Positions 3,381-42,164 of a stretch of DNA of 64,000 nt are shown here, piece by piece. The stretch comes from an uncultured bacterium (lineage in GTDB: Bacteria > Patescibacteriota > Minisyncoccia > Phycocordibacterales > Zambryskibacteraceae), in assembly GCA_963789635.1 (NCBI GenBank), contig CAWBLF010000003.1, forward strand, positions 67,388 through 131,387, in the 5' to 3' direction. Numbering within the stretch: position 1 is the first letter of the stretch; each line of letters starts with the position of its first letter. The notes beneath the pieces are model-generated. The model saw nothing but the letters and a program-made list of their open reading frames with translations, was not told the origin of the DNA and did no database searches. The position numbers were made by a program, and so were the translations under genes.

Positions 3381-3421
3381 CATATTTCTGTCTTTGTGGT
3401 CACAGATAATAAAATTGCCGT

Positions 3422-3470
3422 CGCAATTTTATTTCTGCGACCCCGGCTCACCATAGCCAATTGCTATTGG
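3422..3470. repeat. partial copy (M4) of conserved tRNA-flank motif, plus a 9-bp perfect palindrome
   Basis: TTCTGCGACCCCGGCTCACCAT resembles the GCGCGACCCCGCCTCGCACCAT core seen at 13.7, 22.0 and 25.0 kb; ATAGCCAAT-tgct-ATTGGCTAT palindrome. Confidence 0.35.
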
Positions 3471-3534
3471 CTATATGGTTGCGCCTCGCACAGAATCAGA
3501 AAATCCCGCGCAGGCGGGATGTTTCTGTATTCTG

Positions 3535-11429: not shown

Positions 11430-11434
11430 CATGC

Positions 11435-11458
11435 AAACCCCGAAAGGGGTTTTGCTTT
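11435..11458 (+). terminator. Rho-independent terminator after tRNA-Tyr
   Basis: AAACCCC-GAAA-GGGGTTTTGCTTTG. Confidence 0.6.
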
Positions 11459-11587
11459 GTGCGTCGAGCAAGCAAACTACTTTGCTTGCATGGAAGATTC
11501 GAAAACCTTGAGTATATCGCGTAGCGATAAGAAAGGTGCACAGCTCCTGTCAGGAGAGAATCTTTGTGAACACCAAAAAGAAGCTTT

Positions 11588-13649: not shown

Positions 13650-13800
13650 GATTGCGGGCGGTGAAGGAATCGGTCGGACGTCGATTTCTGCTGAAATCGC
13701 GCACGACCCTGCCTCGCGCCACCGCGCTCCGGCTTTCGATTCCTTTCGCACACGCAATGATGTTCCACTCGGAAGTCTCAGCGGTCTTGCGTGATCATTG
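13650..13800. mobile_element. about 128-bp tRNA-flank module between a 22-bp direct repeat of the tRNA-Trp 3' end (M1 motif)
   Basis: ATTGCGGGCGGTGAAGGAATCG at 13651-13672 and 13797-13818; between them hairpin CGATTTC-tgctg-GAAATCG and a GC-rich second hairpin shared with motif copies at 21962 and 25021. Confidence 0.5.
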
Positions 13801-14882: not shown

Positions 14883-15629
14883 TTATATTGATCCTCCGCT
14901 CGGTATTGAACCACCGCTCTGTATAGAGCCACCACTAGGAATCGATCCGCTCTGTATTGGTTGTGTTGTGGATATAGACCCACCGCTTGGGATAAATCCG
15001 CCCGCGTAAATATATCCGCCAGGAGATGCGGGATTATATGCTCCGGTTGGAAAATATAAATTGTTCCCTAGGCTAATGCTCGTATTGCAGTAGTAGAAAT
15101 AGGTGTAGTAATAACCGCTCGTTGTAAAATGTTTTTGAGGAAATACTGTCACGCTTGAGCAGGTGTTGATTGATCCTCCGGTAGCTATAGAACCTCCCGA
15201 TGGTATTGTGCCACCGCTATTAATAGTGCCACCGTTCGTACCGGTAGTACCACTTGATTGTCCAGTTTGGTTGCTTGAAGTAAATGCTCCAAGAATCTTT
15301 TCCAAAAGGCTTTGCTTTGGTGGTGGCGGGTTTGAAGAAACAACGTAATTGGGACATGCAGGATCCTGGGAATTGATCAATCCATTGCCTGCGTTATCGA
15401 CACTTACAAAACATTTCGGACAATTGGAATCCTGCATATCGGTTTTTCCATTACCGTTGTTGTCTACGCCGTCAAAACACATAGCGTAGAAGTTTGCGGG
15501 GTATGGGTCGGTGTTGCTTGGAAACTCGGCTTTGACAATGGCTATGGGAATAAATAGCATCAAAACAAGCCCGATGGCAAAAGCCGGTTTAATTTGAACG
15601 TTTTGGAGTTTTGATTTAATTGATTTCAT
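14883..15629 (-). CDS. secreted Gly/Ser-repeat protein with Cys-rich D-x-D-x-D-G modules
   Basis: Signal-peptide-like N-terminus; CFDGVDNNGNGKTDMQD...C repeats (calcium-binding-like); C-terminal (PSGGSI)n low-complexity repeats. Confidence 0.4.
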   Translation of the reverse strand: MKSIKSKLQNVQIKPAFAIGLVLMLFIPIAIVKAEFPSNTDPYPANFYAMCFDGVDNNGNGKTDMQDSNCPKCFVSVDNAGNGLINSQDPACPNYVVSSNPPPPKQSLLEKILGAFTSSNQTGQSSGTTGTNGGTINSGGTIPSGGSIATGGSINTCSSVTVFPQKHFTTSGYYYTYFYYCNTSISLGNNLYFPTGAYNPASPGGYIYAGGFIPSGGSISTTQPIQSGSIPSGGSIQSGGSIPSGGSI

Positions 15630-16524: not shown

Positions 16525-16547
16525 TGGTGCCGGAGAGAGGACTCGAA
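16525..16547. repeat. 23-bp direct repeat of tRNA-Leu(CAA) 3' end (candidate distal att site)
   Basis: TGGTGCCGGAGAGAGGACTCGAA is identical to 22079-22101; an imperfect inverted copy TTCGAGTCCTCTCAC at 16619-16633 lets the interval fold into a long hairpin. Confidence 0.6.
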
Positions 16548-16666
16548 TCTTACAGATTCGGTACACCTTTCTTATCGTACTCCCCGCTAGCGCGTGGTCC
16601 GTGCGATATACTCAAGGTCTTCGAGTCCTCTCACGCAAGTAAAATAATTTACTTGCTTCCGACACG

Positions 16667-17068
16667 CAAAAACCCCTAAAAGGGGTTTTCTTGTGCTGTA
16701 ATTATACACTTTGCGCGAACCTTTTTCGAGCGGAAACTGAACGAATGAATCAGCCCCGCCACCGCCTCGCAGAGCCTCGGCGGACACCAAAGAAAAATGT
16801 TCCTTGCTTTTCGGATTTGCGCGCGACCAATTTCTTCTAAAAAGGAAAGGACATTTTTCTTTGGTGCTCTGCCCTCCAAGTATTCGGGCAGGTGGCGGGA
16901 CTAATGCGGACGAGGTTTTGCGAAAACTTTTTTTTGGGGAAAGGATTTCGCAAAACACTCGGCTAATCTTTTTTGAATTCGGAAGTCGCAAGCGGAGGAG
17001 GAGGGGTTTGGGGAGGAATCCTCCGCTTGCTCCGCTGTTTTCTTTTTGGGGATTTCGGGCGGGCGGTG
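16667..17068 (-). repeat. about 400-bp inverted repeat, copy 1 (non-coding, structured)
   Basis: Reverse complement is about 90-95% identical to 21547-21940; contains a 20-bp perfect internal hairpin (CACCAAAGAAAAATGTCCTT...AAGGAACATTTTTCTTTGGTG) and a CCCC/GGGG terminator-like hairpin. Confidence 0.7.
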
Positions 17069-17079
17069 GACTAGAAATA

Positions 17080-19071
17080 CTAAGGAATAAGTCTTTTGTA
17101 TGTCCTTGGGAAAGGAACGGCGTCTGAAATCATTTCTTTGGCTAGAATTTTAGCAACAAGTCTGTCCAACCCAAGACAAAAACCTCCATGATCTACAGCT
17201 TTGTCTACAATAGAAATATAAAATTCATAATCGCTTATATTGATTCCTGACAATAACATTGATTTTTTAATTTGTGCCCCGTCTGTTTGTCTAATCGCAC
17301 CACTTACAAGCTCCCAGCCATCAACGATAATATCAAAAGTTTCAGTCAATCCACCAGATTTATTTTTTGTATAAAACTTTTTTATCGTATCTGGGTAATC
17401 TTTTATGATAAAAATATCACTAGCATTTCTGCTTTTGATTAACTGACCTAATTTAGCTTCACTCACTAGGCCAAGATCATCGCCCATTGTTACGGGGTTA
17501 CCATTTTCTTGAAGCAGTTTGACTGCTTCACAATATGTCAGCACAGGAATTTTATCAATTTCAGGTAGAACCAAATAGCTTGTAAGACTAAAAGTTTTAA
17601 TCAAATCATCGTTTGTCTTCTTAATTATCTGGCAAGCCAAATAATACAAGTTCTCTAAATTCTTTGGATTTTTCAACTCAATATCTAATCCAATTGATTC
17701 TTGTAGGTGTCGATAGGATTCACTCGTTTCTTTCCTCCAAAAGGGGCCAATTTCATATATCTTCTCCAGACCAGATGCAACAAGAATTTGTTTGTAGATT
17801 TGATTAGATTGTCTCAAAAACGCAGGAGCTCCATTCATCCAATCTACATTTATTGTCCCTCCCTTATCAACTTTTGGTGGGTCGGTAGAAAGGCCTACGA
17901 TATATGGTGTCGTTACCTCTAGAAACTTTTGATCATCCAAATAATTTCTGATAATTTTGTACATTTTACTTCTCTGACTGACCAAATCTAATTTATCCTT
18001 ACCCAGCTTTTTAAAATTACTTTGTCTTTGTTGATTTATATACAGCTTTGCGACATTCCTGTTAATTTGATCAACAATTACACCTAATTTCTTGTCTATA
18101 ATACTTTTTGCTTTACTAATTTCATTTTTTCTTGCCCCAACATTGTTTTCTGCGATTTCTGATAGTTTTTCTATCCCAATAAAGCTACTGACTTTGCCCG
18201 CTAACAATGAGGGCGTTGATAAATCAACAAAGAAAATCCTGTTAAGATCATCAATCTTGTTTAGCAAACCGCCTACAACTCGCTTGGTCTCGGCATTATT
18301 ATCAAGAGCAATAATAATACATGCTATATCTTCCGATGATTTGAAATCTGCAAAAGACGAGTATTGAACACTCGTTTCATTAAGATTTTCTTTTGGAACA
18401 TCAATAATTGTCCTATTGACTATGTGTAGTGGCAAAGCATTTTCTACGTTTAAAATTTTAGCAACAAGCTTTCCGGACTTCCCATAACCAATTAATACAG
18501 ATCTCTTTCCTTCTGGGATATTTTTTACCACAAGCTCACTTGCTATTCTTTCCAAAGAAGTGTTCCCTTCAAAAATACTAGTTTTTAGTTTACATTCATT
18601 GGCAAGCTCATTAAGCCAATCAGCAATGAATACAAAAGGGCTTCCATCTCCGTGTATTCCAGACTTTAATCCTTCAGCCATTTGCGATAAAACCTGAGAA
18701 TCGCCAATTGTAACGCTATGAATTCCGACAGCACATTCGCCTAAAAATTTTATAGCGTTGATCTCATCATAAAATTTTATATCCCTAATCAAACTCATTA
18801 TTCCACCATGTGCATGAGAATCCCAAGTTGATAACATTCTCCCTCTCAGATACTCAAAAGAAAGATCGTCTTGGTAAGAAATTAACAACATAACAGCATT
18901 ACACTTCTTTATCACTGCAATAGAATCAATATTAAGTCCTAGATCATTTTTAAATTGATTTAGAAATTCAGAATCATTTTTTAGATCTGCCAATTGTAAA
19001 TTACTCAGAGCCTTTTCATCAAGTCTTTGATAGTTCAACGCTGCACAAATTATTTTATTAGAGAGTGTCAT
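17080..19071 (-). CDS. fusion protein: glutamyl-tRNA reductase-like (HemA-like) N-domain plus class II aaRS (AspRS/AsnRS-type) catalytic core
   Basis: N-terminus aligns with GluTR (CN(A) active-site Cys region KKCNAVMLL, GDSQVLSQMAEG, Rossmann VLIGYGKSGKLVAKIL...IVNRT, FFVDLSTP); C-terminus has class II motifs 1 to 3 (FLEVTTPYIV; IGPFWRKETSESYRHLQESIGLDIE; HGGFCLGLDRLVAKIL) and no anticodon-binding domain. Confidence 0.55.
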   Translation of the reverse strand: MTLSNKIICAALNYQRLDEKALSNLQLADLKNDSEFLNQFKNDLGLNIDSIAVIKKCNAVMLLISYQDDLSFEYLRGRMLSTWDSHAHGGIMSLIRDIKFYDEINAIKFLGECAVGIHSVTIGDSQVLSQMAEGLKSGIHGDGSPFVFIADWLNELANECKLKTSIFEGNTSLERIASELVVKNIPEGKRSVLIGYGKSGKLVAKILNVENALPLHIVNRTIIDVPKENLNETSVQYSSFADFKSSEDIACIIIALDNNAETKRVVGGLLNKIDDLNRIFFVDLSTPSLLAGKVSSFIGIEKLSEIAENNVGARKNEISKAKSIIDKKLGVIVDQINRNVAKLYINQQRQSNFKKLGKDKLDLVSQRSKMYKIIRNYLDDQKFLEVTTPYIVGLSTDPPKVDKGGTINVDWMNGAPAFLRQSNQIYKQILVASGLEKIYEIGPFWRKETSESYRHLQESIGLDIELKNPKNLENLYYLACQIIKKTNDDLIKTFSLTSYLVLPEIDKIPVLTYCEAVKLLQENGNPVTMGDDLGLVSEAKLGQLIKSRNASDIFIIKDYPDTIKKFYTKNKSGGLTETFDIIVDGWELVSGAIRQTDGAQIKKSMLLSGINISDYEFYISIVDKAVDHGGFCLGLDRLVAKILAKEMISDAVPFPRTYKRLIP

Positions 19072-19817
19072 ATGTTTTTATGAATAACTTCTACAGTTGC
19101 TTGGTGTAGTGGAGTAACCGTAATCTCATTTATTTGAACATGTTCTGAAAGATTTATTACATATTTAATAATATCAGCAATGTCGTCTCCTGATAATGGC
19201 TTAATCCCTTTGTATACATTTTTAGCTTGTTTAGTATCTCCGCCGAAACGAACATTACTAAAGTTTGTTTCAACTAATCCTGGCTGTATATTTGTTACTC
19301 TAATGTCATTTTCTACTACTTCCTTTCTAAGTCCGTCAGAGATAGATTTTACAGCCGCTTTCGTTGCTGCATATACAATACCTTTGGAATAAGATGAGAT
19401 ACCTGCAATAGAACCAATATTGATAATATGTCCGCTGTTTCTTTCTTTCATACCCTTAAGCGCAAGCTTGGAAACCATAAGCAATCCTTTTATGTTGGTA
19501 TCAATCATCTGATCCCAATCCTTTATACAACCGTCTTCTAGTTTTTCTAATCCTAAAGCAAGACCAGCAGAGTTTATTAATACGTCTGGATAAAGATTGA
19601 GAGATTCTAAATTTTCAAACATTTTAGAAATCTGGGACTGGCTAGTAACATCAACAGCGAAAACATGTACGTCCTTATTGTTGCTTAGCTCTGATTTAAT
19701 ATTTTCTAACCCTGAGAGATTTCTGGAGCACAAAATCAATCTATTTCCGTCAGACAGTTTTTTGACACATGCCAATCCAATACCACTGCTTGCTCCTGTA
19801 ATTAGTATCGTTTTCAT
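19068..19817 (-). CDS. short-chain dehydrogenase/reductase (SDR)
   Basis: TGASSGIG cofactor motif, NSAG, catalytic YAATKAA; 4-nt start/stop overlaps with neighbours indicate an operon. Confidence 0.8.
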   Translation of the reverse strand: MKTILITGASSGIGLACVKKLSDGNRLILCSRNLSGLENIKSELSNNKDVHVFAVDVTSQSQISKMFENLESLNLYPDVLINSAGLALGLEKLEDGCIKDWDQMIDTNIKGLLMVSKLALKGMKERNSGHIINIGSIAGISSYSKGIVYAATKAAVKSISDGLRKEVVENDIRVTNIQPGLVETNFSNVRFGGDTKQAKNVYKGIKPLSGDDIADIIKYVINLSEHVQINEITVTPLHQATVEVIHKNI

Positions 19818-21232
19818 AGAGAAGATTTTTTAAAGTTTATTCCCAGCTCAACTTTTTGCTTTTCAGATATTTCAGCTGGCGCATTCATCATTAAATCTTT
19901 TCCATCACCCGTTTTTGCAAAAGCAATGATCTCCCTAATATTTGGCTCCTGTTCAAGGATCATCATAAGTCTGTCGAATCCCCACGCAATGCCACCATGC
20001 GGTGGAGCGCCAAGCTCCAACGCTTTCAACATATGACCAAAATTGTTTTCTATTCTTTCATTGTTATACCCCATAATCTCGAAAGTAGTTCGTAGTGCAG
20101 AAGGTTTGTGATTCCTTATACTTCCGCCGCCGATTTCGAGCCCATTCAAAGTAATATCGTATTGTGTGGTAACAATTTCTCCAATACTTTCTTTCCGCAT
20201 AAATTTCTCAAAATCATTGTCTCTTGGTTTTGAAAAAGGATTATGGGTGAATGTCCACTCGCCAGTGCCATCAACATTATCCTCTCCTGTCTTTTCAAAC
20301 ATAGGGAAATCTACAATCCAAAGAAATGCAAGAAGATTTGTGTCTGTTTTATCCTCTCTTATGTCAGGTTTATCATTCCCATATTTTTTCATTGCTTCTT
20401 TGTAGGACATTCTCGGAAACGGTATTTGTTGTATCTTTTTTTCCGGATAGTTTATTTTTACGATATCAATTAATAGTTTTTCATTTAATTGCATAATGTC
20501 ATCTTCAGTAACAAAGGACATTTCCATATCAAGCTGAGTAAACTCGGGCTGTCTATCCCCGCGAGTATCCTCATCTCTCATACAACGCGCAAACTGAAAA
20601 TATTTTTCAAAACCGCCAACCATCAAAAGTTGCTTATATTGTTGCGGAGATTGAGGAAGTGAATAAAAACTTCCTTTGTAAATTCTGCTTGGCACAACAT
20701 ATGAGCGAGATCCTTCAGGTGTTGGCGCAGACAAAAGAGGCGTTTCTATTTCTAAAAAGTCATCTTTTCCAAGATAATTTCGAATGAAATTTTGAATCTT
20801 AAATCTATTTGCAATATTTTTGTGCATTCTGTCGTTTCGTAAATCCAAATATCTATATTTGAGACGAATAGATTCATTCACCTCCCTAGTATCACCACTA
20901 ATCGGGAACGGCAAAGTTGCCGATTCATTTAAAACATTGATATGCAAAATCTCAAGTTCTATATCTCCATTTAGTATTCCTAATTTTTTATTTTTCTCGG
21001 GTCTTTCGTTTACCTTTCCAGTAACTTCAACTACAAATTCTTCTCGTAGAGTTTTACCGACTTCCATTGCATTACTGTTTGGTAATATCACACCTTGTAC
21101 AATGCCTGATGTATCACGAAAATCCAGAAAGATCATTTTCCCTTGATCACGGCGAACATTAACCCAACCATAAACAATGACGGTTTCCTGTTTTTTTCCT
21201 GACAATTCATTTATGTAAGTTCTTTTTTGCAT
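19814..21232 (-). CDS. aspS: aspartyl-tRNA synthetase, bacterial type lacking the GAD insertion domain
   Basis: OB-fold N-domain, RLKYRYLDLR, motif 1 FLEIETPLL, QSPQQYKQLLMVGG...FARCMRDEDTRGDRQPEFTQLDMEMSF, GGGSIRNH, motif 3 HGGIAWGFDRLMMIL; 472 aa with no approximately 110-aa GAD insert. Confidence 0.8.
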   Translation of the reverse strand: MQKRTYINELSGKKQETVIVYGWVNVRRDQGKMIFLDFRDTSGIVQGVILPNSNAMEVGKTLREEFVVEVTGKVNERPEKNKKLGILNGDIELEILHINVLNESATLPFPISGDTREVNESIRLKYRYLDLRNDRMHKNIANRFKIQNFIRNYLGKDDFLEIETPLLSAPTPEGSRSYVVPSRIYKGSFYSLPQSPQQYKQLLMVGGFEKYFQFARCMRDEDTRGDRQPEFTQLDMEMSFVTEDDIMQLNEKLLIDIVKINYPEKKIQQIPFPRMSYKEAMKKYGNDKPDIREDKTDTNLLAFLWIVDFPMFEKTGEDNVDGTGEWTFTHNPFSKPRDNDFEKFMRKESIGEIVTTQYDITLNGLEIGGGSIRNHKPSALRTTFEIMGYNNERIENNFGHMLKALELGAPPHGGIAWGFDRLMMILEQEPNIREIIAFAKTGDGKDLMMNAPAEISEKQKVELGINFKKSSL

Positions 21233-21237
21233 ATACT

Positions 21238-21447
21238 TTATTTCATTAAAACATCAAGCGAAACGCCAAGCGCGTCTGCAATTTTTTTGACTGTATCAAT
21301 AGTAGGGTTGGGCGTTGAGCCAGCTTCTATTTTAGCAATTGTATGAAAAGCCAAATTTGCCTTTTTTGATAAGACATCTTGAGAAATGCCGAGCTTGTTT
21401 CGGTATTTCTTTATGTTGTCCCCAATTGTGGATTTATCGTTTGACAT
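21238..21447 (-). CDS. XRE-family helix-turn-helix transcriptional regulator
   Basis: 69 aa; HTH_XRE pattern IKKYRNKLGISQDVLSKKANLAFHTIAKIEAG. Confidence 0.75.
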   Translation of the reverse strand: MSNDKSTIGDNIKKYRNKLGISQDVLSKKANLAFHTIAKIEAGSTPNPTIDTVKKIADALGVSLDVLMK

Positions 21448-21546
21448 ATTCGTATAGTTTTACTATTATAGTTAGTATGTATATAAAGTCCTAACTATAT
21501 ACGAGTTAGTATATGAAATTTTCACCATTTAGTCAAACGAAATTGT

Positions 21547-21940
21547 CCGCCCGAAATCGCCAAAAGAAAACAGCGGAGCAAATGGAAAATTCCTCCCCAA
21601 ACCCCTCCTCTTCCATTTGCGACATCCGAATTCAAAAACAAATGAGCCGAAGTTTTGGCGAAATCCTTTCCCCAAAAAATAGTTTTGCCAAAACTTCGTC
21701 CGCATTAGTCCCGCCACCTGCCCGAATACTTGGAGGGCAGAGCACCAAAGAAAAATGTCCTTTCCTTTTTAGAAGAAATTGGTCGCGCGCAAATCTGAAA
21801 AGCAAGGAACATTTTTCTTTGGTGTTCGCCGAGGCTCTGCGAGGCGGTGGCGGGGCTGATTCATTCGTTCAGTTTCCGCTCGAAAAAGGTTCGCGCAAAG
21901 TGTATGATTACAGCACAAGAAAACCCCTTTTAGGGGTTTT
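21547..21940 (+). repeat. about 400-bp inverted repeat, copy 2
   Basis: Near-identical to the reverse complement of 16667-17068; followed directly by a tRNA-Leu 3'-end copy (21944-21961). Confidence 0.7.
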
Positions 21941-21943
21941 CTT

Positions 21944-22078
21944 GTGCCGGAGAGAGGACTCGGTCACACATAAAATTCTGCTGAATTTTTGCGCGACCCC
22001 GCCTCGCACCATCGTGCTCCGGCCTTCTCGTCCTCTCACCAAAATATAAAAACCAGCAGTAAGCTGGTATTTATATTT
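21944..22078. mobile_element. about 127-bp tRNA-flank module (M2 motif) between an 18-bp direct repeat of the tRNA-Leu(CAA) 3' end
   Basis: TGCCGGAGAGAGGACTCG at 21944-21961 and 22081-22098; hairpin AAAATTC-tgctg-GAATTTT; GCGCGACCCCGCCTCGCACCATCGTGCTCCGG; imperfect inverted arm CTCGTCCTCTC; AT-rich spacer. Confidence 0.5.
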
Positions 22079-24830: not shown

Positions 24831-24976
24831 GTGCCCATTATATTGGTAAGGAGAAAAAATAAAAGCACCGAGTCAAAACATCCTATGTCCCAACGCATTG
24901 GGACATCGGATGTCTGATTCGCCATTCCTTACGGGACTGCGAGATTACTTCGGTTTATTTAATTTATCCGGTCGAT

Positions 24977-25400
24977 GATTTGGGCACTTGTTATTACTGC
25001 AACGAACAGGGATTGTTTTTGGTCACACATAAAATTCTGATGAATTTTTGCGCGACCCAGCCTCGCGCCGTCGCGCTCCGGTTCACCAAGACCCGCGCGC
25101 AGGCAGCCCCGTTGCCTGCTTCTATTCGGACTTGTCAATTTTGTGTGGATTATGATTTTTGCAAGATTTATTTGAACAGCGCACGGGGATTGTTTTTAGT
25201 CACAAATATTTTGCTCACCGCCATTCGCAAAATTTTGCGACCCCGACTCGGCATTTTTTCTGCTGAAAAAATATGCCTCCGTCTCACAAAAACAAGTGAG
25301 TACGCAGTCTATACTGCGTACTTTCAAAACTACTTCATTAACTTATGCGGATTGTGATTTGGGCAAGCTTTATTACTGCAACGAACAGGGATTGTTTTTG
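24977..25400. mobile_element. about 334-bp insert downstream of topA bounded by 45-bp direct repeats derived from the topA 3' end; holds motif copies M3 and M5
   Basis: 24977-25021 matches 25356-25400 (about 40/45), which encodes the topA C-terminus (CSNKACPNHNPHKL); interior has GTCACACATAAAATTCTGATGAATTTTTGCGCGACCCAGCCTCGCGCC and a rearranged copy at 25215-25275. Confidence 0.5.
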
Positions 25401-27546
25401 TGCCTTCCATCATCAAGGAACCGCAAAGTTTGCAGATTTCTCCGGTCGGTTTGGCTTTGATAGCGTATCGGCATTTGGGATAGTTGGTGCAAGAATAAAA
25501 AATGCCAAAACGGCCGCGGCGTTCAATCATCTCCCCGTCACCGCATACCGAACATTTGATGCCGGTGAGAAGTTTTTTTCTGGTCTCTGGATCATCTTTA
25601 ATAAATTTACACTTTGGGTATCGGGCACAAGAAATAAACCGGCCAAATTTTCCGTCCCTCTCCACCAGATTGGCCTTGCCACATTTGGGGCAGAGTTCAC
25701 CTGTGTCTTTGGGTCCCTCCATAGCCACACCATCTATGGTGCGAGCGCCATGGCAGTCCGGAAACTTATCACAAGAAAGGAATCTGCCATTTTTGCCAAG
25801 TTTTACTATCATTCCGGAACCGCAGACAGGGCACTTCCATTTTGCGTCCGCGGAACCCATATTGGTAATCTTGGCAATTTTATCTTTGGATTTAACGTCT
25901 TTAAGAAAAGGCCCATAAAACTCTTTTAGTGTTTTGACGTAGTCGCGTTTGCCGAGAGCGATTTCATCCAATTCATTTTCCATTTCAGCGGTGAAAGTAT
26001 CGCTGATGTAATTCATAAAATTGTTTTCAAGAAAGGTGCTGACCACGTCTCCGGTGTCGGTGGGGACGAGCGCGCGATCTATTTTCATAACGTAGCCACG
26101 ATCGATAATGGTTTTGATGATGGAGGCGTACGTCGACGGTCTACCGATACCGCGTTTTTCGAGTTCTTTGACAAGACCGGCTTCTGAATAGTGCGCTGGA
26201 GGAGTAGTTTCTTTTTCTTCAGTTCGAAAATCTTTGAGTTTTAAATTTTCACCTTTTGCAATTTTTGGAAGCTCCACATCTTCTTGTCGAGCGCGGGGGT
26301 CTGCGACAAGCCAACCATCAAAGAGTATATGAGAGCCAGTTACAGAAAAATTTGGGATTATATTCGCGCTACTGCGCTCAGTATCTTCGTCGCTCCCGCT
26401 CCTCGACACATTGGCAATTATCTTGGTGCGCAAGGTATTGGCGGAAGCCATTTGAGATGCCACTGTTCGCGCCCAAATCAAGTTGTATAACTTTTTTTGT
26501 TCTTCATTGAAACCGGCGTTTTCTTTTCTCAAATCGGATGGTCGGATGGCTTCATGGGCCTCTTGGGCGTTTTTGCTTTTTCGCGAATATACTCGCGCTT
26601 CATAATATTTTTCACCAAATTTTGATTTTACAATGTTTTCAATTTGTTGTTTTGCCACGACAGACAAGTTTGTACTATCGGTACGCATATAGGTAATTAA
26701 CCCCGCCTCGTAAAGTTTTTGAGCGGTGCCCATAGTGCGTGAAGGTGAAAAACCAAGTCTAGAGCTGGCGGCTTGTTGCAGAGTGGAAGTAATGAAAGGC
26801 GGTCGAGGCTGGCGTTTGACTTCGGTCTCTTTGATATCTATTACCGACCAATCTTCTTTCTTTGCACTGTCGACGATTTTTTCTACTGTTTCATAGTTGC
26901 GAGGTTCTTCTTCACAGGTCAGTGTTATTGGTGTTTTATCTGAAGTAAGAAAATCTGCAGTCAATGTCCAAAATTTTTCCGGCACGAAGGCTCTGATTTC
27001 ACGCTCACGCTCCATCAATATGCGAAGAGCGGGGGATTGGACACGTCCCGCAGAAAGGCCATAACGCACCTTTTTCCAAATCAAACCGGATAGGTCATAA
27101 CCCACAAGGCGGTCTAGGACTCTGCGTGCTTCTTGGGCAATTTTTAGGTTATTGTCGATTCCACGGGGATGTTTTATGGCTTCCGATACTGCGTCTTTGG
27201 TAATTTCATAAAAAACAACACGTTTGGGTTTCTTCAGTCCTACGGCCTCAGAAATGTGCCAAGCGATAGCTTCACCCTCACGGTCCGGGTCGGTGGCTAG
27301 GAGGACTTCTTCGCTATTTGCGGCAAGGTGGCGAATTTCGTTTACCACTTTTTCTTTACCTTTTGAGATTTCGTAATGAGGAACAAATCCGGCTTCGATA
27401 TCAATAGCTTTTTTGTTTGATTTTGGGAGATCACGGACATGACCAACAGAAGCGACTACATCGTATTCGCCATCAAGATATTTTGAAATTGTTTTCGCTT
27501 TTGCTGGTGACTCCACAATCAAAAGCTTTTTACCTTTTGTTGCCAT
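25330..27546 (-). CDS. topA: DNA topoisomerase I with C-terminal zinc ribbons
   Basis: TOPRIM N-terminus KLLIVESPAKAKTI; topoisomerase IA core; multiple C4 zinc-ribbon repeats. Confidence 0.9.
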   Translation of the reverse strand: MATKGKKLLIVESPAKAKTISKYLDGEYDVVASVGHVRDLPKSNKKAIDIEAGFVPHYEISKGKEKVVNEIRHLAANSEEVLLATDPDREGEAIAWHISEAVGLKKPKRVVFYEITKDAVSEAIKHPRGIDNNLKIAQEARRVLDRLVGYDLSGLIWKKVRYGLSAGRVQSPALRILMEREREIRAFVPEKFWTLTADFLTSDKTPITLTCEEEPRNYETVEKIVDSAKKEDWSVIDIKETEVKRQPRPPFITSTLQQAASSRLGFSPSRTMGTAQKLYEAGLITYMRTDSTNLSVVAKQQIENIVKSKFGEKYYEARVYSRKSKNAQEAHEAIRPSDLRKENAGFNEEQKKLYNLIWARTVASQMASANTLRTKIIANVSRSGSDEDTERSSANIIPNFSVTGSHILFDGWLVADPRARQEDVELPKIAKGENLKLKDFRTEEKETTPPAHYSEAGLVKELEKRGIGRPSTYASIIKTIIDRGYVMKIDRALVPTDTGDVVSTFLENNFMNYISDTFTAEMENELDEIALGKRDYVKTLKEFYGPFLKDVKSKDKIAKITNMGSADAKWKCPVCGSGMIVKLGKNGRFLSCDKFPDCHGARTIDGVAMEGPKDTGELCPKCGKANLVERDGKFGRFISCARYPKCKFIKDDPETRKKLLTGIKCSVCGDGEMIERRGRFGIFYSCTNYPKCRYAIKAKPTGEICKLCGSLMMEGTKTIPVRCSNKACPNHNPHKLMK

Positions 27547-27660: not shown

Positions 27661-28518
27661 TTAATTTAATCTCATTTCGCCCATGCTTTCTGTCACCACC
27701 CCGCGGATTTCCAAGACGGCCAGTGTGGAGTTTGCAATGTGAGTAGGTAGGCCACTTTCACGGATAATTTCATCCCGAGACTTCGGTGTTTCCAGCAAGT
27801 CTAGTATTGTTTGCTCTTCCGGATTTTGCGCTTGATATATAACTTTTTCCTTTTCTTCCGGAGAAAAGCCAAGAGCCAATAAAATGTCATCAGCTTTGCG
27901 AATTGGTGTCGCCCCTAGACGAATGAGCATATGGGGTCCTTCGGATTGCTTGGAAAATATTGAGCCGGGAACGGCAAAGACATCGCGGTTGTATTCCGTG
28001 GCAAGTTTTGAAGTGATGAGTGTCCCGGATTTTTCCTCTGCCTCAATGACCAGCACAGCGTGACTCATCCCGGCCATGATGCGATTACGTTGGGGAAAGC
28101 TCCATTGGGTCGGTCGGAAGTCATCGGCAAATTCCGACAGCAAACCGCCTCCGGATTCAATAATATTTTCTGCCAGTCTCAAGTGGCTTTGGGGATACAA
28201 CACTTTTGGGTTGAGACCGGAACCAGGCACGGCAACGGTATGTATATTGTGTGCAAGCGCCGTCTTGTGGGCGATAGAATCAATACCTAGAGCCAGACCC
28301 GATACAATAGTAATGGGGTAACCGGCTAGACCGGATACCAAGGTTTCGCAAACCTCACGGCCGTATTCGGTGTGCTTGCGGGATCCCACAACACAAAGAA
28401 TTTTGTTCTCACTGGGTGGCAAAATCCCTGCAAAGCGAAGCGCATCTGGAGGGTCTGTGATTTCGGCTAATAGTGGCGGAAAGTCTTCCTGTTGTAAATC
28501 TTGAATGGAATACGGCAT
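27661..28518 (-). CDS. dprA: DNA processing protein DprA (Smf)
   Basis: DprA Rossmann-like domain (VSGLALGIDSIAHKTAL, VLVIEAEEKSGTLITS). Confidence 0.8.
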   Translation of the reverse strand: MPYSIQDLQQEDFPPLLAEITDPPDALRFAGILPPSENKILCVVGSRKHTEYGREVCETLVSGLAGYPITIVSGLALGIDSIAHKTALAHNIHTVAVPGSGLNPKVLYPQSHLRLAENIIESGGGLLSEFADDFRPTQWSFPQRNRIMAGMSHAVLVIEAEEKSGTLITSKLATEYNRDVFAVPGSIFSKQSEGPHMLIRLGATPIRKADDILLALGFSPEEKEKVIYQAQNPEEQTILDLLETPKSRDEIIRESGLPTHIANSTLAVLEIRGVVTESMGEMRLN

Positions 28519-28635
28519 CTTTTTATTGTATCATTGAAGCAAAGAAGCAATAAAATCATTCTTCCATCGTCCCTTGAATGAGTCGGGACTCAGGATGATA
28601 ATTTTCTAATCGCTTCTATCAAGAAAATCTATAAT

Positions 28636-29910
28636 ATGCTAGACATAAAATTTATAAGAGACAATAAGGACCTCATCATTGAAGCGGCTCGCAAGAAACA
28701 TGTGAAGTTTGACGTGAATGAGCTTATAAAGATTGACGACAAACGTCGGGAACTTCTTGGGTCCGTGGAGAGCAAGCGTACCATTCAAAACGAAATGAGT
28801 ATGGAGATTGTCAAAGAATCCAGCTCCACGGTGAAGCTCCAATTGATTGAGAAAATGAAAACGCTGAAGGAAGCGCTTCAAAAGGAAGAGGAAGAGCTAA
28901 AAGAGGTGATGCATAATTGGCAGATGAAAATGGTTGAAGTGCCAAACGTTCCAGATATTTCTGTGCCGGAAGGAGACAGCGACAAAGACAACAGAGAAAT
29001 AAAAAATTGGGGTCAAAAACCGCAATTTGATTTCAAACCAAAAAGTCATATTGATATTATGACTGAACTTGATATTGCCGATTTTGAACGGGGAACCAAA
29101 GTAGCCGGGTTTCGTGGATATTTTTTAAAGAATGACGGGGTACTCCTTTCTTTGGCTATCTGGCAGTACTCTATGGATTTTTTTTCGGCAAAAGGATTTG
29201 GGCCTATGCTTGTGCCATCACTCGTGCGTAGGGAAAACTTGCTTGGCACCGGATTTATTCCGCAAGGCGAAGAAGATCTGTACAAAACCCAAGATGCCGA
29301 CTATTTGGCCGGCACAGCCGAAGTGGCATTGATGGGGTATCGGGCAGGTGAGATTCTTTCATTGAAAGATTTCCCAATAAAATATTTAGGATTTTCCCCG
29401 TGTTTTCGCCGGGAAGCGGGCAGTCATTCCAAAGATGTCAAAGGCCTTATCCGTGTTCATGAATTTTACAAACTGGAACAAGTAATTCTTTGTGAAGCAG
29501 ACCACGAGACTTCGGTCAATTATCATGAAGCACTAACTCGCAACACAGAGGAGTTTATGGAATCGTTGAAAATTCCGTATCGCACAGTGGTAAATTGCGG
29601 AGGAGATCTCGGACTAGGGCAAGTAAAGAAATATGATATTGAACTTTGGGTACCGCTTGAAAATACTTATCGGGAAATAGCCTCGGCGTCATATTTTCAT
29701 GATTTCCAAACCCGTCGTCTCAACATTAGGTACAAAGACGCAGGCGGAAAGATGAAATACGCACACTCTCTCAATAATACCGCTACCCCGACCCCAAGAC
29801 TTCTCGTGTCGCTCGTGGAAAATTACCAACAGGCAGACGGCTCGGTGAAGATTCCCGATGCCTTGCAGAAATATATGGGTGGCCGAACAGCGATTGTCAG
29901 GCGTCCATAA
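28636..29910 (+). CDS. serS: seryl-tRNA synthetase
   Basis: N-terminal coiled-coil arm; class II motifs (FRREAGSHSKDVKGLIRVHEF, ATPTPRLLVSLVENYQ). Confidence 0.9.
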   Translation: MLDIKFIRDNKDLIIEAARKKHVKFDVNELIKIDDKRRELLGSVESKRTIQNEMSMEIVKESSSTVKLQLIEKMKTLKEALQKEEEELKEVMHNWQMKMVEVPNVPDISVPEGDSDKDNREIKNWGQKPQFDFKPKSHIDIMTELDIADFERGTKVAGFRGYFLKNDGVLLSLAIWQYSMDFFSAKGFGPMLVPSLVRRENLLGTGFIPQGEEDLYKTQDADYLAGTAEVALMGYRAGEILSLKDFPIKYLGFSPCFRREAGSHSKDVKGLIRVHEFYKLEQVILCEADHETSVNYHEALTRNTEEFMESLKIPYRTVVNCGGDLGLGQVKKYDIELWVPLENTYREIASASYFHDFQTRRLNIRYKDAGGKMKYAHSLNNTATPTPRLLVSLVENYQQADGSVKIPDALQKYMGGRTAIVRRP

Positions 29911-40988: not shown

Positions 40989-42164
40989 CTAGGGGTTGGT
41001 TGAACTTCCTGTTGTAGGCGTGGAGGAAGAATATTGTCCAGATGTTTGCGTGTCAACGCCACCTTGTTGTTGAGTGTCGTTTTGACTTTGTTGTTGTCCA
41101 CCTTGCCAGTTGCCCATTTTTTGGAAGACTGCCTGACATTCGGCTTGGTGACTCACCACACTGCAGTAGGCATCGCAACTTTGTTGTGAATTACAGCCTC
41201 CCGGGCCAGCAATGTTTTGCTCATTACCATTTTGTTGGCCGTTGTTTTGATTGCCATTTTGTTGATTGCCGTTTTGGTTGCCTCCTTGCCAGTTGCCCAT
41301 TTTTTGGAAGACTGCCTGACATTCGGCTTGGTGACTCACCACACTGCAGTAGGCATCGCAACTTTGTTGTGAATTACAGCCACCAGGACCTTGGAAATTG
41401 TTGTGAATCTGGGCATTTTGCGTCATGGCACTATCAAACCCCATTAATTGCGTAAACACGGTGCATTCTGCGCCGTGACTGGGATCACTGCAATAAGATT
41501 CGCATGCTGAAAATTCGCTACAACCGTTTGGTGTTTTTCCTTGTTGGACCAAGGTGTTAAATTTTTGCAAAACCTCCGGACTGACATTGTCCAAACCTCC
41601 TTGTCCGGTAGGATTTATATTTAAACCGATAGCTTTAAATGTTTGCATGCACGCATCCATATGGGCCGGATTTGAACAATATGTTTGACAAGAGGATTTT
41701 GAGGTGCAGTTGCCAGGCATTTGGCCACCACTTTGTAGATATTTCAAAACTTTTTTACCTTCCGTGAGGTCAGGCGTGGTGAAGCCGTTTTTCTGGGCGA
41801 AATTCAGACAAGTCGAAAGGTTGCTGATGGTAGAGCAATAAGCATCACAAGCGTCGGCAGAATCGCATCCACCCGGGCCGTTGCCGTGTGTCAAGAGCGC
41901 AGCATACTGGCTCGCTGTCGACGCTTCATCGGCTGTTATCATGCCGTGTTCCTTGGCGAAGTTTGCACAGGCAGGAATATTGGCGGCGATATCACAGTAA
42001 GCATGGCACGAAGTCTGATCGGTGCAGTTGCCGAGCGCGGCAACAGGGAAGCTAATGCCGTTTTGATTCCCTGAATTTTGCGCCAATACCCTTTGGGAAG
42101 TAAAAAAACTACTTAAAATCATCGCACAAATAAGCAAAACTTTTATTGTTTTAGTGTTTTTCAT
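40989..42164 (-). CDS. secreted cysteine-rich tandem-repeat protein
   Basis: Signal peptide; at least 6 repeats of an about 45-aa C...C..YC......C module; two near-identical DNA repeat units about 135 nt long around 41100-41400. Confidence 0.5.
   Translation of the reverse strand: MKNTKTIKVLLICAMILSSFFTSQRVLAQNSGNQNGISFPVAALGNCTDQTSCHAYCDIAANIPACANFAKEHGMITADEASTASQYAALLTHGNGPGGCDSADACDAYCSTISNLSTCLNFAQKNGFTTPDLTEGKKVLKYLQSGGQMPGNCTSKSSCQTYCSNPAHMDACMQTFKAIGLNINPTGQGGLDNVSPEVLQKFNTLVQQGKTPNGCSEFSACESYCSDPSHGAECTVFTQLMGFDSAMTQNAQIHNNFQGPGGCNSQQSCDAYCSVVSHQAECQAVFQKMGNWQGGNQNGNQQNGNQNNGQQNGNEQNIAGPGGCNSQQSCDAYCSVVSHQAECQAVFQKMGNWQGGQQQSQNDTQQQGGVDTQTSGQYSSSTPTTGSSTNP

Follow-up and report, generated by a model that had tools for sequence, protein, structure and literature searches.

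Two tandem gene-end-replacing cassettes at the 3' end of topA in an uncultured Patescibacteria genome

The DNA analyzed here, called the window, is a stretch of 64,000 nucleotides in which topA lies on the minus strand. Read in the sense of the gene, topA is followed at its 3' end by copy C, E2, copy B, E1, copy A, the original terminator and relA/spoT, where A, B and C are copies of the topA end and E1 and E2 are two small cassettes. Counted with the replacement topA end that each carries, E2 has 202 bp and E1 has 177 bp, and neither contains an open reading frame beyond the gene end. The features are as follows, with L120, L121 and L122 denoting relatives.

25330 to 27546, minus strand: topA, DNA topoisomerase I, 738 aa (Pfam Topoisom_bac, Toprim and three Zn_ribbon_Top1 matches, which are C4 zinc ribbons)
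25330 to 25399, minus strand: copy C, the functional replacement end borne by E2, from the junction GGCAC|AAAAACAA as far as the stop; it agrees with the native L120 end at 46/70 positions
25198 to 25329, minus strand: E2 without its gene-end copy
25299 to 25322, minus strand: terminator-like hairpin of E2 (terminator scan), then a U-rich tract overlapping the guide
25287 to 25296, minus strand: guide of E2, CUUGUUUUUG, then the linker UGAG; 9 of its 10 bases (UUGUUUUUG) pair with the junction sequence (C/U)AAAAACAA, giving helix P1
25198 to 25282, minus strand: core of E2, an 85-nt variant that ends in GUGACU at 25198 (covariance-model match 25188 to 25296)
25122 to 25197, minus strand: copy B, a displaced former topA end brought by E1, in frame with its own stop; 63/76 identical to the L120 end
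25021 to 25121, minus strand: E1 without its gene-end copy
25099 to 25119, minus strand: spacer hairpin of E1, GCAGGCAACGGGGCUGCCUGC; the orthologous cassette of L121 has the same spacer
25086 to 25093, minus strand: guide of E1, GGUCUUGG, then the linker UGAA; complementary to CCAAGACC, which is the L121 topA allele and near that of L120
25021 to 25081, minus strand: core of E1, canonical 61 nt, CCGGAG-P2b-CGAGGCUGGGUCG...P3...GUGACC; 74.5 bits
24945 to 25020, minus strand: copy A, the earliest of the displaced topA ends, in frame and with a stop of its own; its C-terminus ...KCPNHRPDKLNKPK is the native end of P0007/L122
24878 to 24913, minus strand: original topA terminator hairpin, downstream of copy A (terminator scan; inverted repeat 94% complementary)

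An earlier note on this DNA had described a 45-bp duplication of approximately the last 15 codons of topA at about 40/45 identity. The two segments, 24977 to 25021 and 25356 to 25400, are identical at 41/45 positions, and the repeat proved to be both longer and more numerous than described. The outer pair extends to 63 nt at 84% identity (24959 to 25021 and 25338 to 25400), and a third copy lies at 25154 to 25198 (34/45), the sole other segment of the 64-kb window that reaches at least 28/45. Over the 63-nt repeat, this middle copy (25136 to 25198) has 63% identity. The copies start 177 and 202 nt apart, and what had been taken for a single insert of 334 bp is instead two tandem units of 202 + 177 = 379 bp.

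All three copies share the junction GGCAC|A, which falls within the last zinc-ribbon codons, and the base directly 3' of the core, in E1 and in E2 alike, opens the next topA-end copy. From the junction, the topA frame yields in each copy a C-terminus that ends in a stop: TKTIPVRCSNKACPNHNPHKLMK for copy C (elsewhere given as ...KTIPVRCSNKACPNHNPHKLMK), (L)KTIPVRCSNKSCKNHNPHKIDKSE for copy B and (P)KTIPVRCSNNKCPNHRPDKLNKPK for copy A. The last 23 codons of topA now come from E2. Copies B and C are only 63-70% identical as DNA but encode nearly identical proteins, so the copies are diverged functional alleles and not decaying duplicates.

The topA-downstream regions of relatives were then compared. 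The closest topA proteins are those of Candidatus Zambryskibacteria/Paceibacteria, and the order serS-dprA-topA-relA/spoT-parB is kept in four relatives. In L122, whose topA is 79% identical, the gap between topA and relA is 16 bp and the site is empty; its native C-terminus, ...KCPNHRPDKLNKPK, is of the copy-A type. L120, with a 96% identical topA, likewise lacks a cassette, and the copy orthologous to its native end is copy B, with 63/76 nt identical (83%) compared to 46/70 (66%) for copy C. In L121 (87%), E1 is present with the same spacer, and decayed fragments of the topA end come after it. These native ends in L122 and L120 indicate that the duplicated segments keep the reading frame of former topA ends and that the element supplied the present terminus. 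The window and L120 agree at about 90% of positions along the gene and at about 60% around the junction, with the fall taking place within about 10-15 nt; as judged from these alignments, this shows copy C to be of foreign origin relative to the topA gene body. An empty site was also found at a tRNA-Leu locus, which is uninterrupted in L120. The tRNA there is directly joined to sequence that is 5.5 kb away in the window, where it sits after the most distal displaced tRNA fragment.

These comparisons make it well supported that the window cassettes at topA are insertions, and the empty tRNA-Leu site in L120 shows the same for the sister cassettes at tRNA genes described below. The earlier proposal of integration into a protein-gene 3' end with a replacement terminus thus stands as regards insertion and replacement of the gene end, and relatives bear it out, while the single event that it assumed is replaced by two nested ones. 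Since no integrase is present, the word integration is used here for insertion with exchange of the gene end, and not for a classical integrase mechanism. In the simplest history, a topA with an A-type end would have received E1 carrying a B-type end. E2 would have arrived later, after the split from the L120 lineage, with a C-type end from elsewhere. Two such rounds would yield topA-C-E2-B-E1-A, with E1 as the first arrival, common to the L121 lineage and now degraded. This history requires that L120 has lost E1 and copy A.

The part of each cassette next to the displaced gene end is a conserved core. In its canonical form it has 61 nt and consists of CCGGAG, a 4-bp stem with a GNNG loop, CGAGGCNGGGUCG and a 37-nt hairpin ending in GUGACC. 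Upstream of it are a 4-nt AARG linker and, before that, a variable segment complementary to the sequence that follows the core, which we call the guide. The fold tested was a three-way junction of P1 (guide with downstream sequence), P2a with a GGA/GA internal loop and P2b, and P3 with a bulged A. Covariation was tested on a gapless alignment of 112 copies drawn from the matches listed in a genome scan. In these 112 copies, 90% of cells were paired, compared to 72% in shuffles and 36-45% with the partners slid, and double-sided changes were found in 582 cells, compared to 177 in shuffles. Of the cells in P2b and P3, 97-99% were paired. A single G.U pair recurs in 110/112 copies, and the bulged A, which lies 9 nt from the junction on its 5' side, is invariant. 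Since a wobble pair is conserved, the gene-sense strand is the one that folds. Minimum-free-energy folds of five window copies reproduce the three-way junction with z scores of -2.9 to -7.5. In the modeled fold, P3, which ends ...GUGAC-C, is predicted to stack directly on P1, where the guide is paired with the gene end, and the two helices meet exactly at the junction.

A covariance model (R1) was built from the 112 copies. E1 and the cassettes after tRNA-Leu and tRNA-Trp were among them, so the scores of these three are partly by construction, while E2 and a variant after tRNA-Lys were left out of the training sequences. E2 matched R1 with 52.7 bits (E about 1e-13, with a shortened calibration), and the covariance-model alignment of E2 has zero mispaired P1 positions. 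Its core has a long P2b hairpin, capped by a CAGCAG loop, together with P2a and the GGA/GA internal loop, and its P3 reads GGUCGC...bulged A...GUGACU; the minimum-free-energy fold gives the same three-way junction (z = -3.2). The second motif copy, which the earlier note had called rearranged, is therefore better described as a divergent subfamily member with the same fold and all P1 pairs formed. The other copy was rightly seen as canonical and akin to the modules beside tRNA genes (74.5 bits for E1, compared to 88.6 for the tRNA-Leu and 87.5 for the tRNA-Trp cassette in the window). If the family is defined by a guide, the 4-nt AARG linker, a CCGGAG..CGAGGCNGGGUCG..bulged A..GUGACC core and an abutting copy of the guide-paired sequence, both E1 (74.5 bits) and E2 (52.7 bits) belong to this 61-nt three-way-junction family.

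The two cassettes differ in their state of preservation. The guide of E2 forms 9/9 pairs with the proximal and also with the distal topA-end copy. The guide of E1 pairs at 5/9 positions with either neighboring copy, so that P1 is degraded. In addition, E1 has A at position -1, where 118/120 family members have G, and this G-to-A change is unique. E1 therefore looks like a fossil and E2 looks intact.

An exact-pattern scan of genomes, with one genome per species, found at least 119 matching stretches. About 115 of the matches listed are in Patescibacteria and have a core of exactly 61 nt; their hosts include Saccharibacteria, Paceibacterota, Kaiser-, Nomura- and Berkelbacteria, and others. Four listed matches outside Patescibacteria are without the remaining parts of the motif. 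The core follows a tRNA gene on the same strand, at a distance of 14-100 nt, in about three quarters of the listed loci, and these tRNAs are of many isoacceptor types. The targets seen comprise more than 20 tRNA species, tmRNA and topA, and one listed locus has two tandem cores after tmRNA. The junction was mapped in 37 tRNA cases: in 31/37 it lies between T-loop C56 and R57 (GGTTC|RAnTCC), and in 5/37 it lies 2 nt before the tRNA 3' end. Near-identical cores are found at these unrelated targets (many tRNAs, tmRNA, topA), and only the guide differs. The smallest cassettes consist of about 20 nt and the core (L033). We found no description of the motif in the literature on Patescibacteria/CPR, and the cassettes are apparently an undescribed family found across this group. 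Two sister cassettes and one variant lie in the window itself.

21943 to 22078, minus strand: cassette after tRNA-Leu(CAA), with a terminator, guide GAGAGGACGAG and 61-nt core at 21962 to 22022; 88.6 bits; a displaced tRNA fragment from T-loop to 3' end at 21943 to 21961 abuts the core
13653 to 13799, minus strand: cassette after tRNA-Trp, with guide GGAAUCG and core at 13672 to 13732; 87.5 bits; it holds a displaced fragment from T-loop to 3' end
3389 to 3533, minus strand: variant cassette after tRNA-Lys, joined at the tRNA 3' terminus; z = -7.5; 17.9 bits, E 0.004

Some members carry cargo. One member, L025, holds 2.4 kb of small open reading frames without a recombinase and was the only clear case when autonomous versions were sought among cassettes with widely spaced gene-end copies; another locus, L021 (about 1.1 kb), has no convincing open reading frame. 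In the window, a 5.4-kb insertion at tRNA-Leu contains two class-II aminoacyl-tRNA synthetase paralogues and a dehydrogenase, again without a recombinase, and its right end is a different guide-plus-core, termed 'family II'. There are also 'class 2' copies, which have a closed P1 hairpin with the displaced gene fragment upstream, next to 5S rRNA genes or at the 5' half of a tRNA. These do not yet fit the simple insertion model.

At topA, the repeats are direct repeats in tandem, at spacings of 177 and 202 nt, which could point to a local origin, with the topA end duplicated in tandem or by slippage, or to a template/variable pair like that of a diversity-generating retroelement. This does not agree with the differences between the copies, which are mostly synonymous and match natural topA alleles of other lineages, nor with the spacers, which carry a core common to tRNA loci and about 115 other listed genomes, nor with the empty sites in relatives. 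The mismatches are also of all kinds rather than adenine-specific, and no reverse transcriptase was found among the window open reading frames scanned, so a diversity-generating retroelement was rejected. A local origin is almost certainly wrong, as the empty sites and the shared core already refute it.

The reach of the family to non-tRNA targets, which the earlier note had proposed from topA, was borne out by three more topA insertions in metagenomes. When metagenomes were scanned with the E2-type right end, L125, L126/L127 and the L121 contig came up. L125 and L126/L127 are further insertions at the topA 3' end with the same junction, and the displaced ends are intact in L126/127, so that E2 of the window, E1/L121, L125 and L126/127 all use one topA junction. 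The guides follow synonymous differences among topA alleles, each matching the allele of its own copy.

Window E2: guide UUGUUUUUG, paired sequence CAAAAACAA
E1/L121: guide GGUCUUGG, paired sequence CCAAGACC
L125: guide UAGUUUUGG, paired sequence CCAAAACUA
L126/127: guide GGUUUUUG, paired sequence CAAAAACC

The guides of L121, L125 and L126/127 each form one more pair with their own proximal, functional copy than with the displaced copy; pairing with the proximal copy is perfect in L125 and L126/127 and 8/9 in L121. The proximal copy is thus ahead by one pair in 3/5 comparisons of topA cassettes, with a tie in the two window cassettes. In the tRNA cassettes, the proximal and distal copies were mostly identical when guide pairing was compared.

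One possible explanation for these data is that no dedicated chemistry is involved. The core would then be a structured RNA with a role in 3' processing, in stability or in insulation, and P1 would do no more than close the fold. Natural transformation with homologous recombination would carry the cassettes from cell to related cell, with the gene body and the displaced end as homology arms. Patescibacteria are generally competent, and dprA adjoins topA. The flanking direct repeats do give two homology arms, a cargo of 2-5 kb would be easily moved, and the core is RNA-like in its conserved G.U pair, tandem G-A internal loop and tetraloop. Such a process leaves unexplained how the arrangement was first created at more than 20 tRNA species, tmRNA and topA, and why the last base of the core always abuts the start of the complementarity to the guide. 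The donor-type sequence at topA begins around the junction and not at a variable upstream crossover, although this is a single case, and presence and absence between 96%-identical relatives speaks against an essential host function. We consider this explanation unlikely.

An enzyme was also sought. No integrase, transposase or reverse transcriptase domain was found among 39 open reading frames of the window that were searched (Pfam), and no recombinase or reverse transcriptase family recurs in the 8-kb loci around about 115 listed copies. All-against-all clustering of the 1009 neighboring open reading frames in these loci gave housekeeping families only. From their sequences, we take these to be IF-2, an FtsA-like protein, cysteine desulfurase, RbfA and ClpB, and, putatively, a 137-aa YraN-like protein (a guess) and a likely CCA-adding enzyme. 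The core had no match in viral contigs, GenBank phages or PLSDB plasmids, and no cognate autonomous element with the same att sites was found among the at least 119 genome loci, viral contigs, phages and plasmids. An Islander-type island with its own integrase was rejected since there is no integrase in the cassettes, among the 39 window open reading frames or recurring near the about 115 listed copies.

The cassettes could still be relics of integrase islands or prophages, in which attL and attR were fused by interior deletion and the core is an arm once bound by integrase or excisionase. Their architecture, with the target restored by the element and a displaced fragment at the far end, is that by which tDNA islands are defined (PMC4383910). 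The junctions in the T-loop or at the 3' end and the cargo-bearing versions (2.4 kb in L025 and 5.4 kb in the window) would also fit. Against this, no protein family recurs beside the core, the 8-kb loci of the about 115 listed copies hold no integrase, and viral contigs, phages and plasmids gave no matches. The smallest cassettes hold only about 20 nt and the core, and near-identical cores serve unrelated targets with only the guide changing. A conserved, strand-specific G.U pair with compensatory changes would be unexpected for arms that bind protein as duplex DNA. This origin is decidedly improbable.

Known structured RNAs were searched with cmscan and 4227 Rfam families, with the gathering score as threshold for the entire window and E <= 10 for 24850-25420, and only tRNAs and noise were found. 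A fragment of tmRNA or RNase P, suggested by the strings GGAUUCGA and CCGAGG, was rejected since Rfam and ARAGORN place those genes elsewhere. A remnant of group II intron domains V-VI was judged by the domain V/VI consensus with its AGC triad and by a bulged A at the branch site, 7-8 nt away from the 3' splice site. It was also rejected: Intron_gpII gave no match at E <= 10, and the bulged A of the core sits in another helix context, at 9 nt from the junction.

Another possible explanation is catalysis by the RNA itself, in which the three-way junction would be a ribozyme that cleaves or ligates at C|R and, guided by P1, reverse-splices into the target, followed by a DNA copy made by reverse transcriptase or a repair polymerase. 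The near-invariant junction nucleotides, wobble pair, bulged A and guide pairing at the junction resemble substrate recognition by a ribozyme, and in every case the element has the same orientation as a highly transcribed gene. No Rfam model of a self-cleaving ribozyme (hammerhead, twister, twister-sister, pistol, hatchet, HDV-like or hairpin) matched, nor did a group II intron, even at E <= 10, and no reverse transcriptase is nearby. Terminators precede the core in several cassettes, and a 5.4-kb cargo is unlikely to have passed through RNA. We regard self-catalysis as highly improbable. Replication-strand bias is uninformative on single-stranded DNA versus RNA since the cassettes necessarily take the orientation of the host gene.

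The observations establish insertion at a fixed phosphodiester, a foreign gene end beginning around the junction, a strand-specific fold, co-variation of guide and allele and the lack of a cis-encoded enzyme. From these, we infer junction-specific integration catalyzed in trans. In the reading that we favor, and hold to be moderately probable, E1 and E2 are two tandem non-autonomous integrative cassettes at one topA phosphodiester (GGCAC|A), placed there by guided, trans-catalyzed, site-specific integration. Each cassette has four parts: a replacement gene end that starts at the exact junction, with its own stop and usually a terminator-like hairpin; an optional spacer or cargo; a guide of 8-9 nt complementary to the first bases past the junction; and, 4 nt beyond the guide, the conserved core, which folds on the gene-sense strand. 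On insertion, the gene comes to read into the end borne by the cassette, and the previous end is pushed downstream of the core.

The free form of the cassette may have the 3' end of the core joined to its own gene-end copy, so that P1 would form in cis. A catalyst supplied in trans would then exchange strands at C|R between this folded single strand, be it single-stranded DNA or RNA, and the same chromosomal position, and the old gene end would remain as the downstream repeat. Our guess for the catalyst is a recombinase, encoded by the host or a helper, that acts on a folded strand as IntI does on attC and XerCD does on CTX-phage DNA. A recombinase of this kind is favored because the multi-kilobase cargo and the upstream terminators speak against an RNA intermediate, a point crossover needs little flanking identity and no reverse transcriptase is present. 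Neither a catalyst nor a free or excised form was seen. In E2 and in the tRNA-Leu cassette, a terminator-like hairpin separates the core from the gene end, and such hairpins would limit co-transcription if the active strand were RNA. The 5/9 pairing of the E1 guide in the window means that perfect pairing of guide and target either was not required or has decayed. The T-loop and the tRNA 3' end, as Williams is said to have reported in 2002, are sublocations that classical tyrosine integrases use too.

A bolder reading is that the family is a new mobile class, a protein-less, self-addressed module in which the 61-nt junction is the reactive part, as ribozyme or enzyme substrate, and the guide sets the point of insertion. 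The enzyme would then be a widely conserved, putative Patescibacteria protein, and retargeting would need only a new guide and a copy of the new gene end. We hold this reading to be less likely than not, yet see a substantial chance that the mechanism is categorically new.

A large share of bacterial diversity belongs to the Patescibacteria (CPR), and the DNA exchange of their tiny genomes is little understood. In this family, a core conserved in sequence across the phylum is combined with a guide matched to the target. The family can carry kilobases of cargo while encoding no enzyme, shuffles C-terminal alleles of an essential protein between lineages and breaks assemblies at tRNA genes. Insertion into essential genes (tRNAs, tmRNA, topoisomerase I) would be harmless since a substitute gene end is brought along. 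If 8-9 bp truly set the target, the family would be a compact natural system for programmable insertion or gene-end replacement and would lead to the missing catalyst, putatively an RNA or a conserved protein.

Several known systems resemble the cassettes in part. MITEs are likewise small, non-coding and multicopy, but a MITE was rejected since the cassettes have no terminal inverted repeats and their repeats are of 70-76 nt, 67-79% identical and distinct natural alleles. As the copies are diverged functional alleles, the flanking repeat is not a target-site duplication. IS200/IS605 elements (with PATE), group II introns with their EBS/IBS pairing and IS110 with its bridge RNA share with the cassettes a short internal sequence that pairs at the insertion point and varies with the target. 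Unlike these, the cassettes have no TnpA/TnpB, intron protein, domains I-VI, DEDD recombinase or two-loop bridge RNA, and they supply a replacement gene end, which none of the three does. IS200/IS605 or PATE were also rejected because there is one structured end only, with a gene-end copy at the other end, and no TnpA/TnpB is nearby.

Integron attC sites (with IntI) and CTX attP (with XerCD) come close, since the cassettes likewise bear no recombinase of their own and would rely on a strand-specific fold with extrahelical bases, not on duplex sequence, for a crossover at one precise point with little flanking identity. The cassettes differ from them in lacking GTTRRRY boxes or a dif-like sequence, in folding into a three-way junction and not a hairpin, and in carrying a target gene end; attC itself was rejected since the consensus has no R/L boxes, no Rfam attC model matched and there is no integrase. 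CIMEs and integrase-less satellites are non-autonomous, flanked by both recombination products and capable of tandem arrangement at one site, as the cassettes are. CIMEs derive from a known ICE or IME with a cognate integrase, whereas the cassettes are 1-2 orders of magnitude smaller and no parent was found in the loci searched.

The cassettes also resemble islands or prophages that tyrosine integrases place in the 3' part of tRNA, tmRNA or protein genes. An island as catalogued by Islander is defined by a target gene that is split and regenerated by element sequence, with the displaced fragment marking the end of the element (PMC4383910), and this splitting and restoring is what the three in-frame ends and the empty sites in relatives display at topA. 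The likeness extends to the displaced fragment at the far end, tandem accretion, insertion points in the T-loop or at the 3' end and the use of protein-gene 3' ends. The cassettes differ from such islands in being gene-free and 10-100 times smaller, with a non-coding part of about 100-130 nt, and in having a folded 61-nt core at the junction, a guide that covaries with the target and one core for unrelated targets. They fail the integrase test but behave like gene-3'-end islands, and are therefore filed as a kind of gene-end-replacing integrative element.

The last zinc-ribbon tail of topA was found to exist as a few discrete allele types. Among the related proteins P0001-P0020, the C-termini read …NHNPHKLMK, …NHNPHKIDK/LDKPE or …NHRPDKLNKPK, and the distribution of these types did not track overall topA similarity. 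Cassettes that exchange gene ends among lineages would be expected to leave this kind of mismatch. In another relative, topA and relA are separated by a distinct insert, roughly 1 kb long (L123, 6182-7242), with two small antisense ORFs of 117 and 123 aa for which no Pfam hit is on record. That insert has no core.

Two adenines were unchanged in all 112 cores of the gapless alignment A1. The first, at column 58 (core position 44), sits in the P3 hexaloop (CAGCAG). The second, at column 66 (core position 52), bulges from P3 and is 9 nt from the junction on its 5' side. Each may be a catalytic residue or one that contacts a protein.

Some copies of the 61-nt core, termed class 2, have a closed-hairpin P1 with a conserved loop, either GAAUACUUGGA or AUGGGA. 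In these copies, the order from upstream to downstream is displaced gene fragment, core, intact gene. Class 2 copies adjoin 5S rRNA genes at five loci (L002, L043, L046, L056 and L080), with the core on the opposite strand and 5S fragments alongside, and occur at tRNA 5' halves at four others (L014, L015, L023 and L053). On the minus strand of L076 (about 2400-2750), a tRNA-Glu-like pseudogene with four interruptions lies next to an intact tRNA-Glu. Two of the interruptions are in the D-loop, one is in the anticodon loop and one, itself a core copy, is in the T-loop.

The sign of the GC skew switches at window positions 28,000-28,650 (approximately). Gene orientation also diverges there, with dprA and topA on the minus strand and serS on the plus strand, and parB is found at a distance of 5 kb. 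The replication origin is probably located in this region. The window's five core copies are all on the side on which their genes run co-oriented with replication.

Further window features are as follows:

11431-11560: family II core, after tRNA-Tyr
14887-15242: short periodic repeats, inside ORF 14883-15629
16546-21938 (flanks to 22078): 5.4-kb insertion at tRNA-Leu(CAA)
16551-16640: family II core, distal end of the 5.4-kb insertion
16658-17046 and 21562-21951: terminal inverted repeats of the insertion, about 390 bp
41091-41390: tandem repeat, 183 bp, 94% identical, inside ORF 40989-42164

Neither repeat-containing ORF had a Pfam match. The 5.4-kb insertion, which the relative with 96%-identical topA (L120) lacks, has a displaced tRNA-Leu 3' end at each of its two boundaries. 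It encodes a short-chain dehydrogenase and two class-II aminoacyl-tRNA-synthetase paralogues, one of them fused with a GluTR-N/shikimate-DH-like domain; no recombinase was found within it.

The family II core (…CCTTGAGTATATCGC…CGATAAGAAAGGTG…), also present in L052 and L059, is a second core, unrelated to the 61-nt one. It shows the same architecture: a guide that is antisense to the T-arm of the tRNA precedes it, and a displaced tRNA end follows it.
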